Below are positions 4,056 to 47,809 of a stretch of DNA of 64,000 nucleotides, one piece after another. Position 1 is the stretch's first letter; each line of letters begins with the position of its first letter. The DNA lies in assembly GCF_050920415.1 (NCBI RefSeq), contig NZ_CP169309.1; one strand, given 5' to 3'. The notes beneath the pieces are model-generated. The model saw only the letters and a program-made list of their open reading frames with translations. It was not told the DNA's origin and did not search any database. The stretch comes from Escherichia coli. Its GTDB lineage: Bacteria; Pseudomonadota; Gammaproteobacteria; Enterobacterales; Enterobacteriaceae. The position numbers were made by a program, and so were the translations under genes.

Positions 4056-4748
4056 TCAGGTCACCCGTTTAGCCCGACTTGCCTTCGTCCATTCTGGATT
4101 TGCACAGCGCGGACATAATTGTTTTTCCCCTGCGTTCATATGAATGATCTCACTGCAACGGATGCAAGCATAGTCCGCCGACTCAGGCACCACTTTGTAA
4201 CGCTGAGTACAGTCACTGGGTAAAATAAGTAATCCCGGTTTGACCTTGTCATCTTCAAAGAAATAGACACTGATTTGCCCGTTGGTTTCGAGAATCGCCA
4301 GACGTACCTGCCCCAACTGCTCCACTCCACGCAGTCGCAGCTCCATAAAGAACTCAAATTCCGTCATGTTGGAGTTATTAAGTTTCGACCAGGCCAGCTC
4401 ACCATCCTCAATAATGACAACCGGCTTGCCTTCCAGAAGATCCTCCAGTTTTTCACTGTGCGCCATCAACCACATTACCAGACGGTATAACAACGCCAGA
4501 GTAATAAAGACGATAAGCACCGGAACCATCGGCACATCATCATAAAACGCCACATCCCCCGCCGCTGACCCCAGCGTCAGAATGATTAACACTTCAAAAA
4601 GCGACATCTGCCGCACACCGCGTCTTCCGGTCATTTTGAGGAACAAAAAAACCAGTACAAAGGTATAAAGACTACGTAGTGCAACTTCGCCAAGGAAATC
4701 AAAAGGCACTTTATCAAGTGCCATACGGTGGAGATCGAACGCCTTCAT
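4056..4748 (-). CDS. ycaP: DUF421-family inner membrane protein YcaP
   Basis: 230-aa ORF in the conserved position between serC and ycaO; hydrophobic N-terminal half. Confidence 0.8.
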   Translation of the reverse strand: MKAFDLHRMALDKVPFDFLGEVALRSLYTFVLVFLFLKMTGRRGVRQMSLFEVLIILTLGSAAGDVAFYDDVPMVPVLIVFITLALLYRLVMWLMAHSEKLEDLLEGKPVVIIEDGELAWSKLNNSNMTEFEFFMELRLRGVEQLGQVRLAILETNGQISVYFFEDDKVKPGLLILPSDCTQRYKVVPESADYACIRCSEIIHMNAGEKQLCPRCANPEWTKASRAKRVT

Positions 4749-20553: not shown

Positions 20554-20723
20554 AATGGCTCACTCAAGCTTGCTCACGATTGATTCCAGTAACAAACCGT
20601 ATTGTGTAATTATTTCTATAGCAGGTCGCTATATAGGTTTGTATACATCGAATGATTTGAAAATCAAAGAGATAGGCAGATTTTCACTCGAAAGTAGTAT
20701 TACGTGTAAGTGAGGAGTAATTA

Positions 20724-20737
20724 TTGTTCGGTATCAA
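20724..20737 (-). promoter_or_regulatory. FNR box of the dmsA promoter (TTGATaccgAACAA, minus-strand reading)
   Basis: Reverse complement of 20724-20737 is ttgataccgaacaa; dmsABC is a known FNR-activated operon. Confidence 0.6.
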
Positions 20738-20747
20738 AGGGAGACAA

Positions 20748-20773
20748 AAAAAGCGCCCGAAGGCGCTTTTTAG
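20748..20773 (-). terminator. rho-independent terminator downstream of serS (bidirectional hairpin)
   Basis: aaagcgcc-cgaa-ggcgcttt hairpin flanked by A-run and T-run. Confidence 0.7.
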
Positions 20774-20791
20774 ATTCAGAAAAATTGGGTA

Positions 20792-35577: not shown

Positions 35578-35606
35578 TTGACCGTTTTACTCCAACTCCC
35601 TATAGT
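35578..35606 (+). promoter_or_regulatory. candidate serW promoter (TTGACC -35, 17-bp spacer, TATAGT -10, GC-rich discriminator)
   Basis: Hexamers read at 35578-35583 and 35601-35606; gcgccccg discriminator typical of stringently controlled tRNA promoters. Confidence 0.55.
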
Positions 35607-35649
35607 AGCGCCCCGTTGCCCCCCATGAGGTCAGGCAGCAAAACAATTT

Positions 35650-35737
35650 GGTGAGGTGTCCGAGTGGCTGAAGGAGCACGCCTGGAAAGTGTGTATACGG
35701 CAACGTATCGGGGGTTCGAATCCCCCCCTCACCGCCA
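35650..35737 (+). tRNA. serW: tRNA-Ser (anticodon GGA)
   Basis: GGTGAGGTGTCCGAGTGGCTGAAGGAGCACGCCTGGAAAGTGTG...GGTTCGAATCCCCCCCTCACCGCCA; long variable arm; 88 nt. Confidence 0.95.
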
Positions 35738-35779: not shown

Positions 35780-36028
35780 CATTTTATCTGCCTGTACGGC
35801 AGTGAACAAAATTACAAAGCATCAAAACCAGGGAATAGTTTTCTAAGCTGCCTGTACGGCAGTGAACTCAAATACTACACGTCTAGCCCGTTGTTAATAA
35901 AGCAAAACCATCTCATTTTCCTGCTGCCCCCCCCCCCCCCCCCCCTTTTTTATCCTTACCTTTCAGCTGCACTACTTATCAACAACTTACCATCATCATC
36001 AAAAAAAGGGTCTGAACCTCCTCCACCC

Positions 36029-45161: not shown

Positions 45162-45586
45162 ATCCCCTCCAGAAATATGTGACTTATCCTTTACGCTGGC
45201 AGTATAACGGGAAAGGCCTTGCTAATACGTGATGACATCACATTTAAGCATGGCAAATGTCTGAAAAATGAGCGAATAATCGCGTTATACTCCCTCTTGC
45301 TGATAAGTCTGCAAAAACAACAAAATCAAATAATTAGCATGATAAATTATTTTTTATTACGCCTAAAGGATTAAATCTTTTGCTTGCACTACACTGTCAA
45401 TCAGACAAATGACTATATGGGGCAACCCGCTGTTGCCCTAAATCAAATTTACTGGATTTATTTATCTGGTGAATGACTCGCCTTCGTTTTTAAAATAGCC
45501 GCGCATTATTTCCGTCGTCACTTTTTTACGACGACCCTATAAAACGACCATATTTTTCACAGGGTCAATTTTTAATTGAGGTGGAT

Positions 45587-46282
45587 ATGTTCAGAAAATT
45601 AGCAGCTGAATGTTTTGGTACTTTCTGGCTTGTTTTTGGTGGCTGTGGTAGTGCCGTACTGGCCGCAGGCTTCCCGGAATTAGGCATTGGTTTTACCGGC
45701 GTAGCGCTGGCATTCGGTTTAACCGTTCTGACGATGGCCTTCGCTGTTGGTCATATTTCTGGTGGTCATTTTAACCCGGCGGTCACTATTGGCTTATGGG
45801 CTGGCGGACGTTTTCCGGCAAAAGAAGTCGTTGGCTACGTAATTGCCCAGGTTGTCGGCGGTATTGTTGCAGCGGCGCTGCTGTATTTAATTGCCAGTGG
45901 TAAAACGGGATTTGACGCGGCAGCCAGCGGTTTTGCTTCTAACGGTTATGGCGAGCATTCACCAGGCGGTTATTCCATGCTTTCCGCGCTGGTGGTTGAA
46001 CTGGTATTGAGTGCAGGTTTCTTGCTGGTGATCCACGGCGCAACCGACAAATTCGCTCCGGCGGGTTTTGCACCAATTGCCATTGGTCTGGCATTAACGC
46101 TGATTCACTTAATCAGTATTCCGGTGACTAACACTTCCGTTAACCCGGCGCGCAGTACTGCGGTTGCCATCTTCCAGGGCGGCTGGGCGTTAGAACAACT
46201 GTGGTTCTTCTGGGTAGTGCCAATTATCGGCGGTATTATCGGTGGTCTGATTTACCGGACTCTGCTGGAAAAGCGTAATTAA
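45587..46282 (+). CDS. aqpZ: aquaporin Z
   Basis: [28 protein letters not shown]; two NPA motifs ([16 protein letters not shown]). Confidence 0.97.
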
Positions 46283-46290
46283 TTAACGCA

Positions 46291-46320
46291 GAAGGCCTGG
46301 CGCAATGTCAGGCCTTTTTT
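46291..46320 (+). terminator. rho-independent terminator downstream of aqpZ
   Basis: aggcctggcgcaatgtcaggcct hairpin followed by TTTTTT. Confidence 0.75.
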
Positions 46321-46377
46321 AAATATATAGATTCATCTTCCTGTTGCGCTCCTTGATGTGTTAAGCCACATATAGTC

Positions 46378-46608
46378 ACTGGCGCAGGGAGCGCGCAGGG
46401 GGCGGCCAATCGCCGCCGCCCCCTGCACCCCCGGGCTCTGGCGAACAAAATCGCCGCTGCGCGGTGCCCTCGACTTATCCCTTGCGGCTACCGGGTCGGG
46501 CGCGAGGTAACATCCCGGTAAAACGCGCCCTCAGCCCACATCCATGTGGGCTGCCCCGGCCTTCAGGGAACGCCTCGGCGATTTTGACGCCACCAACACC
46601 GGTGCGGT
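46378..46608. repeat. GC-rich intergenic element with nested perfect palindromes (unclassified; possibly a box C/RSA-type repeat or a structured RNA)
   Basis: 11-bp-arm palindrome 46396-46425, 9-bp-arm palindrome 46533-46552, 7-bp arms 46498-46530, long-range 11-bp inverted repeat 46446-46456 / 46577-46587. Confidence 0.5.
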
Positions 46609-46766
46609 TTGTAATTAAAGCGCAAGAACATCTTTAAATGAAAATGAATACCCTACCGATCCTTATGCATAACATTTCCTTTTAATTGCAACTTTACTCG
46701 TCCTTCCGCTTTCAGTAGTGTGTCATCGCGCATTTCGACTTATTTCTTTGCAAGGACTGGTTTTTC

Positions 46767-47666
46767 ATGTTTTCTGGGCTGTTAATCATTCTGGTTCCCC
46801 TGATTGTGGGTTACCTCATTCCGCTTCGCCAAAAAGCTGCATTAAAGGTTATTAATCAGCTATTAAGCTGGATGGTTTACCTTATTCTCTTTTTTATGGG
46901 TATCAGTCTGGCGTTTCTCGATAACCTCGCCAGTAACCTGTTGGCGATTCTGCATTATTCCGCCGTCAGTATTACCGTTATTTTACTGTGTAATATTGCC
47001 GCCCTGATGTGGCTGGAGCGAGGCCTACCGTGGCGCAACCACCATCAGCAAGAAAAACTCCCGTCACGTATTGCGATGGCGCTGGAGTCCCTCAAGCTCT
47101 GCGGTGTGGTGGTGATTGGCTTTGCTATTGGCCTTAGCGGATTAGGTTTCTTACAACACGCTACGGAAGCCAGCGAATACACGTTAATTCTGCTACTTTT
47201 CCTCGTCGGTATTCAGTTGCGTAATAATGGCATGACCTTAAAGCAGATTGTCCTTAATCGCCGGGGAATGATTGTCGCTGTGGTGGTGGTGGCCAGTTCT
47301 TTAATTGGTGGTTTAATTAACGCCTTTATTCTTGATCTTCCCATCAATACCGCGCTGGCAATGGCTTCCGGTTTCGGCTGGTATTCTCTTTCCGGTATTT
47401 TATTGACCGAATCTTTTGGTCCGGTAATCGGGAGCGCGGCGTTTTTTAATGATTTGGCCCGTGAGCTGATTGCTATTATGTTGATCCCTGGGCTGATTCG
47501 CCGTAGCCGCTCTACTGCACTGGGCTTATGCGGTGCGACGTCGATGGATTTCACACTGCCCGTTCTTCAACGTACTGGCGGACTGGATATGGTCCCGGCG
47601 GCGATTGTTCACGGTTTTATTCTTAGCCTGTTAGTGCCGATCCTCATCGCCTTTTTCTCTGCGTAA
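46767..47666 (+). CDS. lysO: L-lysine exporter LysO (YbjE)
   Basis: 299-aa hydrophobic ORF starting MFSGLLIILVPLIVGYLIPL. Confidence 0.88.
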   Translation: MFSGLLIILVPLIVGYLIPLRQKAALKVINQLLSWMVYLILFFMGISLAFLDNLASNLLAILHYSAVSITVILLCNIAALMWLERGLPWRNHHQQEKLPSRIAMALESLKLCGVVVIGFAIGLSGLGFLQHATEASEYTLILLLFLVGIQLRNNGMTLKQIVLNRRGMIVAVVVVASSLIGGLINAFILDLPINTALAMASGFGWYSLSGILLTESFGPVIGSAAFFNDLARELIAIMLIPGLIRRSRSTALGLCGATSMDFTLPVLQRTGGLDMVPAAIVHGFILSLLVPILIAFFSA

Positions 47667-47699
47667 TACCTCTCTGGCGGTAGATCCCTGCCGCCAAAA

Positions 47700-47713
47700 T
47701 TGCGCTAAATCAA
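47700..47713 (+). promoter_or_regulatory. candidate FNR box (TTGCGctaaATCAA) in the hcp promoter
   Basis: Match to TTGAT-N4-ATCAA about 100 bp upstream of the hcp ATG; hcp-hcr is a known FNR-dependent operon. Confidence 0.55.
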
Positions 47714-47770
47714 TCTCCCTTAAAGTTGCATGAAAAATCCCTTTTATCCCCGCGTTAAGCGTCTTAACCT

Positions 47771-47793
47771 TAAACATGTATATTAAATATAAC
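47771..47793 (+). promoter_or_regulatory. candidate NsrR operator (AT-rich palindrome acatgtatattaaatataact) overlapping the hcp promoter
   Basis: Imperfect inverted repeat resembling the NsrR consensus; hcp is an NsrR regulon member. Confidence 0.4.
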
Positions 47794-47809
47794 TTTAAAA
47801 GGTGTGATC

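Follow-up and report, generated by a model that had tools for sequence, protein, structure and literature searches.

What is the GC-rich, palindromic block that separates aqpZ from lysO in the 64,000-nucleotide stretch of Escherichia coli DNA analysed here (contig NZ_CP169309.1; the whole stretch is called the window below)? A first-pass annotation, made from the letters alone, had marked about 230 bp at positions 46378-46608 and had suggested a member of a rarer E. coli family of intergenic repeats (box C or RSA type), a miniature inverted-repeat element or a structured RNA upstream of lysO. We conclude, with a probability of roughly 90%, that the block is the repeat TRIP1a and that its core is the Replication Risk Sequence (RRS) known as RRS-lysO. 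The guess at a rarer intergenic repeat family was thus right in kind and wrong in name, as the clean match to TRIP1 supersedes box C, RSA and ERIC (IRU). Since TRIP1 is a known repeat, any claim to novelty fails: it has stood in the catalogue since 1999, and its functional characterisation as RRS-lysO goes back to 2023.

The identification follows from comparison with E. coli K-12. Over 273 nt the window element is 95.6% identical to K-12 TRIP1a, which occupies the same aqpZ-lysO interval, and over 268 nt it is 93.7% identical to TRIP1c between dusC and yohP, while matches to TRIP1b (putP-efeU) are partial, at 82-88%. The K-12 a and c copies differ by only 2 mismatches over the stretch that maps to window positions 46377-46597. 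The published G-quadruplex (G4) 20-mer of the RRS is present without a mismatch on the minus strand (0 expected by chance), and the G4Hunter-type score reaches -1.84 at 46408-46432 (1.84 for the minus strand) against a maximum of 1.40 for the other strand. The interval marked in the first pass nearly coincides with the 222-bp core common to the K-12 lysO and dusC copies; comparison of paralogues puts the full conserved repeat slightly wider, at 273 bp with 65.2% GC.

TRIP1 repeats were first listed by Rudd (1999, Res Microbiol) and are described by Li et al. (2024, Genes 15:236; PMC10888264). They have 62-65% GC, measure 146-273 bp and occur in 0-5 copies per genome, and the K-12 paralogues are 84-94% identical (PMC10888264). 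The same source gives TRIP1a as 266 bp, 70 bp past the aqpZ stop and 158 bp before the start of ybjE/lysO, TRIP1b after putP with a 125-bp internal deletion, TRIP1c after yohI/dusC, TRIP1d between alx and sstT, and TRIP1e between copA and ybaP. Independently of the TRIP1 work, Pham, Cox, Goodman and colleagues found the RRS as a 222-bp near-perfect repeat at lysO and dusC, the two copies being the two strongest peaks of RecA and SSB on single-stranded DNA (ssDNA) genome-wide (Nucleic Acids Research 2023, PMC10287960). The RRS was subsequently equated explicitly with Rudd's TRIP1 (PMC10592627, the same work as Nucleic Acids Research 2024, PMC11194060).

The internal architecture of the window copy was analysed by inverted-repeat search and folding. 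The element begins 59 nt past the aqpZ stop and ends 152 nt before the lysO start within a 484-bp intergenic interval, and the GC fraction rises from about 0.42-0.48 to 0.66-0.73 across 46350-46550. Its placement downstream of the aqpZ terminator was correctly noted in the first pass, as a hairpin and a T-run precede it; a consensus terminator scan missed this hairpin because its loop measures 9 nt. Nested perfect palindromes are present as described, although two of the three arm lengths given (11 and 9) were off by one: we found arms of 12 nt (46395-46406 / 46415-46426), 10 nt (46532-46541 / 46544-46553) and, as stated, 7 nt (46489-46495 / 46514-46520). For the 32-nt hairpin formed by the first pair, 0 matches are expected in shuffled sequence. 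The long-range 11-bp inverted repeat proves to be a perfect 11-nt core, CAAAATCGCCG, within 16-nt arms of 88% complementarity (46446-46461 / 46571-46586), with 109 nt between the arms and a span of 141 bp. Folded as RNA, the 273-nt element reaches -146 kcal/mol (z -5.25); folded as DNA, it reaches -81 kcal/mol on the minus strand (z -5.9) and -79 kcal/mol on the plus strand (z -5.4), and in each case 0 of 200 shuffles were as good. The features are collected in the table.

Table. Features of the aqpZ-lysO interval and its flanking genes, in window coordinates. For the element and its parts, the strand given is the G-rich strand that carries the RRS G4.
Feature	Position	Strand	Basis or remark
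aqpZ coding sequence (upstream neighbour)	45587-46282	+	open reading frame; 95% identity to K-12 aqpZ; aqpZ annotation in matching RefSeq records
aqpZ terminator, hairpin AAGGCCTG / CAGGCCTT, then T6 run	46292-46322 (hairpin 46292-46316)	+	inverted repeat and sequence
Probable TRIP1a, full conserved unit	46342-46614	-	alignment of paralogous and inverted copies
Third hairpin, arms GCGCTCC / GGAGCGC, long AT-richer loop	46346-46394	-	3' arm on the G4 strand is AAGGAGCGCAACA
Probable RRS-lysO core, about 222 bp	46377-46597	-	stretch near-identical in K-12 lysO and dusC copies
Perfect 12-bp hairpin GCAGGGGGCGGC / GCCGCCCCCTGC, 8-nt loop	46395-46426	-	overlaps 3' half of G4 motif
G-quadruplex-forming RRS 20-mer GGGGGTGCAGGGGGCGGCGG	46413-46432	-	exact match to published sequence
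Y-shaped multibranch domain, TwoAYGGAY-like core, about 140 nt	46448-46587	-	stem AAAATCGCCG / CGGCGATTTT closing two hairpins whose loops contain GGA
Hairpin 2, stem GGGCGCG / CGCGCCC	46498-46530	-	loop ACCGGGAUGU in window, ACAGGGAUGU in K-12, ACAUGGAUGU in Kluyvera
AYGGAY hairpin 1, CAGCCCACAUGGAUGUGGGCUG on G4 strand	46532-46553	-	inverted repeat; 18-mer common to bona fide TwoAYGGAY RNAs
lysO (ybjE) coding sequence (downstream neighbour)	46767-47666	+	open reading frame; 95% identity to K-12 lysO

How widely is the element retained? BLAST against 5426 complete E. coli genomes, a copy count that the first-pass annotation had proposed, returned 18,857 places in 5425 of them, with a median of 3 per genome and a range of 1-10. 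The co-linear aqpZ-element-lysO arrangement of the window recurs in 4027 of the 5426 genomes. A paralogue lies between dusC and yohP (locus L004 of the comparison set), and further copies were found at putP-efeU, alx-sstT and yegH-asmA; K-12 keeps truncated copies at putP-efeU and yegH-asmA. Within the aqpZ-lysO interval itself, the copy is inverted relative to its flanks in L003 and L029 and internally deleted in L002.

The yegH-asmA copies constitute a divergent sixth family locus outside TRIP1a-e, flanked by REP sequences and occupied in both orientations (L016 8746-9018, L062 8477-8737, L082 840-1112, L073 318-590; in K-12, L088 3486-3759). The K-12 copy is truncated such that both AYGGAY hairpins are gone, and the E. 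whittamii copy (L062) contains a further insertion. At this locus the G4 20-mer is not conserved and the hairpins are compensated.

Conservation of pairing was assessed in an alignment of 23 copies from E. coli, E. albertii, E. whittamii, other Escherichia, Kluyvera, Pseudocitrobacter and two metagenome-assembled genomes. The RNAalifold consensus comprises 68 pairs, 13 of which show compensatory double changes. Variants of the 12-bp hairpin are kept paired (GGGGGCGGCGGC/GCCGCCCCC, GGGGGAGGAGGC/GTCCTCCCCC and CAGGGTGGTGGC/GCCACCCTG, also GGAGGAGGC/GTCCTCC), the third hairpin is compensated at alignment pairs 230-234/273-277 (GCGCTCC to GTTCAC), and the closing stem of the Y-shaped domain and its inner stems likewise carry compensatory changes. 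The exact G4 20-mer is present in 14 of the 23 copies, and the rest keep G-rich variants except for the divergent yegH-asmA copies. Since most of the loci from outside E. coli were fetched with the hairpin-1 18-mer as search pattern, the invariance of this 18-nt hairpin, GCCCACATCCATGTGGGC, arises by construction and was not counted as conservation.

The alignment also distinguishes the two strands. An A·C mismatch on one strand corresponds to a G·U wobble pair on the other. On the G4 strand, 17 pair columns contain G·U and 1 contains A·C, and among Watson-Crick-consensus pairs alone the ratio is 13 to 1. This strand-specific excess indicates that selection for folding acts on the G4 strand. 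The signature fits the DNA model of the RRS, in which G·T wobble pairs form in ssDNA, and an RNA equally well.

Which strand would the replication fork expose? In the window the plus-strand GC skew is -0.034, Chi sites number 6 on the plus and 14 on the minus strand, and KOPS motifs 0 and 5. These three measures mark the minus strand as the leading-strand sequence and hence as lagging-strand template. The G4 strand is thus the lagging-strand template, the canonical K-12 orientation; the evidence is indirect, as the window includes neither origin nor terminus. The orientation agrees with the synteny to K-12 at 0.915 Mb. A distance of about 650 kb from dif and symmetry with the dusC copy are predicted from K-12 synteny. 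As a separate observation, six stretches of the window reach a G4Hunter-type score of at least 1.5; the G-rich strand is the minus strand in all of them and the plus strand in none (4547-4579, 35599-35624, 35911-35962, 46406-46437, 50493-50534 and 54032-54066).

In K-12, the G4 strand hinders polymerases both in vitro, where it blocks Pol I, II and IV, and in vivo, where Pol III is impaired; deletion or inversion of both RRS changes genome-wide supercoiling (PMC10592627 / PMC11194060). The RRS literature reports polymerase blockage, gaps of up to 2 kb, loading of RecA and SSB, an influence on chromosome topology around the terminus, and conditional essentiality (PMC10287960, PMC10592627, PMC13308219), and purified replisomes reproduce the DNA-level activity in vitro (Kusi-Appauh et al. 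2026, PMC13308219). By analogy, we infer that the RRS-lysO copy of this strain would behave like that of K-12. Unwinding by the replisome would leave the G-rich minus strand transiently single-stranded, allowing it to adopt the G-quadruplex and a set of very stable hairpins. With forks moving from high to low coordinates in the window, the lagging-strand polymerase would arrive from the aqpZ side, be blocked at the G4, disengage and restart at the next primer. The resulting transient ssDNA gap of up to about 2 kb would lie on the lysO side, over the Y-shaped domain and lysO, and would load SSB and RecA (the gap direction being deduced from the replication direction and PMC10592627). Together with an inverted dusC partner on the other replichore, some 650 kb to each side of dif, the element is proposed to serve as a topological relief valve on the flanks of the Ter macrodomain.

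Nothing that was found speaks against the identification; several observations qualify the mechanism. Reverse orientation was reported for 1255 of 4703 genomes at TRIP1a and for 2789 of 5741 at TRIP1c (PMC10888264). Reversed elements were likewise seen by us in L003, L029, L004, L030 and records of the O157:H7 type. Since such reverse alleles occupy the same loci, a G4 on the lagging-strand template is not universally maintained. None of the four yegH-asmA copies has the 20-mer and three of them score low for G4 (0.92-1.2, with L016 at 1.72; of the three that are within the 23-copy alignment, two score 1.0-1.2, the third being L016), and yet their hairpins are kept. In addition, half of the G4 20-mer is sequestered in the perfect 12-bp hairpin, which itself shows compensatory changes. 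Because the low-G4 copies at yegH-asmA keep compensated hairpins, the hairpin structure, beyond the G4, appears to be under selection. The RRS papers (PMC10287960, PMC11194060, PMC13308219) do not mention natural orientation polymorphism.

How the two orientations arose can be judged from their flanks. At both TRIP1a and TRIP1c, the forward allele is distinct from the reverse one across the whole intergenic segment, including the aqpZ terminator region and the spacers (window 46283-46661 versus L003 1838-2293 and L029; L087 versus L004 and L030). As the difference covers the entire segment and not the repeat alone, it looks like the product of allele replacement or independent insertion, which we would favour over inversion in situ. 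The reverse aqpZ-lysO allele is found in O157:H7-type genomes.

Does the core have relatives beyond TRIP1? The Rfam/Infernal scan envisaged in the first pass gave a single near-match on the element, to the RNA motif TwoAYGGAY (RF01731): the full model aligned to 46448-46587 on the minus strand with 26.4 bits (E 0.3), below the gathering score of 43 bits. The Kluyvera homologues, which are 83-87% identical to the window element and carry the RRS G4 (as exact 20-mer in L070), reach 54.2 and 44.6 bits over the full model and thus exceed this cut-off (L038 9515-9676; L070 3847-4011). That is, the family link rests on transitivity, because the window copy misses the cut-off and its Kluyvera homologues pass it. 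A P1 stem enclosing two hairpins, with covariation, is present. Loop 1 of the window copy is AUGGAU, in agreement with AYGGAY; loop 2 is CGGGAU (AGGGAU in K-12), which departs from it and accounts for the low score. In Kluyvera (L038) and in a metagenome-assembled genome (L025) loop 2 is AUGGAU, and ACAUGGAUGU of the Kluyvera homologues has drifted to ACAGGGAUGU or ACCGGGAUGU in E. coli.

The link was also followed in the other direction. Bona fide TwoAYGGAY RNAs of Lachnospiraceae (72-79 bits) contain the hairpin-1 18-mer, as does an Edaphovirga match (47.7 bits, partial model); a Thiotrichaceae locus matching TwoAYGGAY with 57 bits has a different hairpin. A covariance model built only from RRS Y-domains (A3/R1) recovered dozens of full-length matches in Edaphovirga, often arrayed at intervals of about 310 nt and with E values down to 3e-8, as well as full-length matches in Shewanella and in metagenome loci including human-gut ones. 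Among the loci so recovered, six score 74-92 bits as TwoAYGGAY in Rfam and a seventh 46 bits. The original TwoAYGGAY alignment contains several copies per genome in Psychromonas and very long P1 stems (Weinberg et al. 2010, PMC2864571); the exact hairpin string was absent from the alignment files of that study as searched, probably owing to gap characters. We did not find a connection between the RRS and TwoAYGGAY in the literature searched, and the RRS paper of 2024 contains neither 'Rfam' nor 'AYGGAY'.

Taken together, the RRS/TRIP1 core is very probably a diverged TwoAYGGAY-family structure. Judged by sequence and structure models, the Y-core is a putative part of a wider gammaproteobacterial intergenic repeat family, with arrays in Edaphovirga, members in Shewanella and multiple copies in Psychromonas. 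TwoAYGGAY has been an RNA motif without assigned function since 2010 and is common in human-gut Clostridiales. It is a tentative and on balance doubtful extension that TwoAYGGAY elements in general are DNA-level, replication-coupled folding elements of the RRS kind. Conversely, the RRS may have an unrecognised side as an RNA and as a target of a CsrA-type protein.

Further TwoAYGGAY-related arrangements were noted. A G4 beside TwoAYGGAY was considered as a general rule and rejected: the 3' G-rich tract scores 2.4, 1.9 and 1.2 in three related Lachnospiraceae loci, and there is none in Thiotrichaceae or Edaphovirga. In Lachnospiraceae, an imperfect palindrome of about 700 nt with TwoAYGGAY at its apex takes up the entire intergenic region between convergent genes (L069 4050-4744; L024 1269-1941); its 5' arm is C-rich and its 3' arm G-rich and G4-prone, which is reminiscent of the RRS and was not seen in other lineages. 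Edaphovirga cremea has arrays of 3-5 Y-domain-like repeats in mixed orientation within a larger composite repeat (L039-L049, for example L047 655-1715 and L045 7453-8511). Kluyvera, Pseudocitrobacter and an Enterobacteriaceae metagenome-assembled genome have a second, small two-hairpin TwoAYGGAY-like element that covers model positions 46-112 only (37-49 bits); it is on the strand opposite to the RRS homologue, at a distance of about 75-180 nt (L070 4104-4167, L012 2218-2281, L038 9360-9423, L025 1594-1657).

The alternative that survives best places the function in a transcript of the G4 strand. This would be a TwoAYGGAY-type RNA that binds a dimeric protein such as CsrA through its two GGA loops and the 3' AAGGAG, acting as a decoy or as the leader of a short open reading frame. 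CsrA/RsmE proteins recognise an ANGGAN hexaloop with the consensus RUACARGGAUGU (PMC7652899). Both hairpins of the element resemble this loop and the consensus, which was obtained by SELEX: hairpin 1 has an AUGGAU hexaloop closed by AC/GU, and hairpin 2 of K-12 is UUACAGGGAUGU. In the window, however, hairpin 2 has ACC in place of the invariant ACA. The full-length matches to TwoAYGGAY, the recovery of gut loci by the RRS-derived model and the G·U excess that marks the G4 strand as the folding strand would all suit an RNA, but wobble pairing of G with T in ssDNA accounts for the strand asymmetry just as well, and the activity reconstituted with purified replisomes is at the DNA level (PMC13308219). 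An ATG follows AAGGAGCGCAA on the G4 strand after 2-9 nt in 19 of 26 copies, but the open reading frames that begin there have 2-27 codons and are unrelated between loci. Neither a sigma-70-like promoter nor a terminator was found on either strand of 46200-46800, the motif strand is antisense to both neighbouring genes in the window, and its orientation relative to the neighbours flips among strains. In the CsrA study of Potts et al. (2017), ybjE and dusC are marked 'No' in four columns that we take to report binding by crosslinking and immunoprecipitation, with no significant change; this lends CsrA binding no support, although a gene-centred table is not decisive. A metagenome scan for paired CAUGGAUG hairpins returned many loci that, by eye only, look like multi-GGA small RNAs. 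We consider an RNA-level role unlikely.

Two observations stand beside this. The G4 strand ends in AAGGAGCGCAACA (window 46330-46354, minus strand), and with the ATG at 2-9 nt in 19 of the 26 copies this makes a Shine-Dalgarno-plus-start arrangement without an obvious gene. Metagenomes from soil, sea and gut widely contain paired CACAUGGAUGUG ... CAUGGAUG hairpins (L089-L208), which resemble CsrB/Rsm-type multi-GGA small RNAs (by eye only) and often start directly after a terminator T-run or occur in tandem units.

The element could also be a selfish or decaying repeat akin to a miniature inverted-repeat element, without function at this site, the RRS phenotypes being a by-product of strongly folding GC-rich DNA. 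Copy number (1-10 per genome) and the presence, internal deletions and orientation of copies do differ between strains, related Y-domain repeats have undergone massive amplification in Edaphovirga, occur in Shewanella and are found in several copies in Psychromonas, and the K-12 copies at putP-efeU and yegH-asmA are truncated. But at least one copy is retained in all complete E. coli genomes but one, and pairing is upheld by compensatory substitutions across genera. The first-pass suggestion of a miniature inverted-repeat element is not borne out, even though copy number, presence or absence and orientation show repeat-like dynamics: neither terminal inverted repeats nor target-site duplications are visible, the ends TTGTTGCGCTCC... 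and ...GCGGTTTGTAA are not inverted repeats of each other and differing flanks lack a duplication (by eye and with a repeat finder, a search that was not exhaustive), and a clean empty aqpZ-lysO site was absent among the allele classes seen. Near-universal retention, compensatory evolution and the published phenotypes would hardly be expected of a purely selfish repeat, which we regard as improbable, somewhat more so than a role as RNA.

A riboswitch-like or attenuator-like leader controlling lysO, for which the strong structure 152 nt upstream of the start codon might speak, has a negligible chance of being correct and is effectively refuted by the occurrence of both orientations upstream of lysO and by the presence of the same element after unrelated genes (dusC-yohP, putP-efeU, alx-sstT, yegH-asmA and, according to PMC10888264, copA-ybaP), while internally deleted copies exist in some strains (L002), Rfam gives no riboswitch match, and the strand-specific pairing signature lies antisense to lysO. 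Of the structured RNA proposed in the first pass, the embedded Rfam-type motif, a diverged TwoAYGGAY, therefore stands, whereas a regulator of lysO is unlikely given both orientations, the antisense folding strand and the lack of a promoter-like site. TRIP1a with its RRS-lysO core remains our identification of the block.

The rest of the window contains further repeats and RNAs. A tRNA (35650-35734) lies near two type I-F CRISPR repeats with one 32-nt spacer between them, a degenerate one at about 35783-35807 and one at 35840-35867 that matches Rfam CRISPR-DR4. A homopolymer run of 19 C (35927-35945) yields the strongest minus-strand G4-type score of the window. At gathering level, Rfam detects the small RNA STnc130 (20644-20778, plus strand, 138.8 bits) and one naRNA4, a REP/BIME transcript (63313-63393, minus strand, 78.4 bits), the only naRNA4 match in the window.

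The element is a rediscovery and serves as a positive control, as the 222-bp RRS was located from raw sequence almost to the base. What is new here is modest: the connection to TwoAYGGAY, covariation that is specific to one strand, and additional divergent members of the family, which may be of use to specialists on the RRS or on RNA motifs without known function. Pairing is upheld element-wide by compensatory changes, beyond the G4, with a wobble signature on the G4 strand. The TwoAYGGAY link would connect work on the RRS with a functionally unassigned RNA motif that is found across phyla, and the polymorphism in orientation and allele together with the extra divergent copies bears on how strict the need for a G4 on the lagging-strand template is. 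If TwoAYGGAY elements were indeed DNA elements of the RRS kind, the two known programmed-gap elements would become hundreds of candidates.

Among known systems, REP/BIME elements are likewise GC-rich, palindromic, intergenic and multi-copy, and have been implicated in chromosome topology as gyrase sites and supercoil barriers. However, REPs measure about 35 nt and number in the hundreds, whereas this element is about 270 nt long with 1-10 copies, and the sequences are dissimilar; as the first-pass annotation had noted, the element does not match REP, and the Rfam scan gave no match to the naRNA4/REP model inside it or anywhere within 45500-47800, even at E ≤ 10. The pilE G4 of Neisseria gonorrhoeae is, according to the RRS papers, the only other bacterial sequence reported for G-quadruplex-triggered programmed gaps; it is unrelated in sequence, lacks the Y-shaped domain, serves pilin antigenic variation and needs a small RNA transcript. 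TwoAYGGAY shares with the element a P1 stem around two hairpins, a first loop AUGGAU and multiple copies in some gammaproteobacteria, but it is defined as RNA whereas the RRS acts as DNA, and the G4, the 12-bp hairpin and the third hairpin fall outside the Rfam model. TRIP1a agrees in locus, length class (266-273 bp), GC content (62-65%), predicted 'double-Y' fold and paralogous loci; the window copy differs in nothing essential, diverging by about 4% from K-12 and having a spacer to aqpZ that is 10 nt shorter. With the RRS, finally, the window copy shares the 222-bp core, the exact G4 20-mer, the adjacency to lysO and the placement of the G4 strand on the lagging-strand template. Where the present comparison departs from that literature is in its emphasis, since it brings forward the conserved hairpins and the Y-shaped domain beside the G4, together with a natural polymorphism in orientation.

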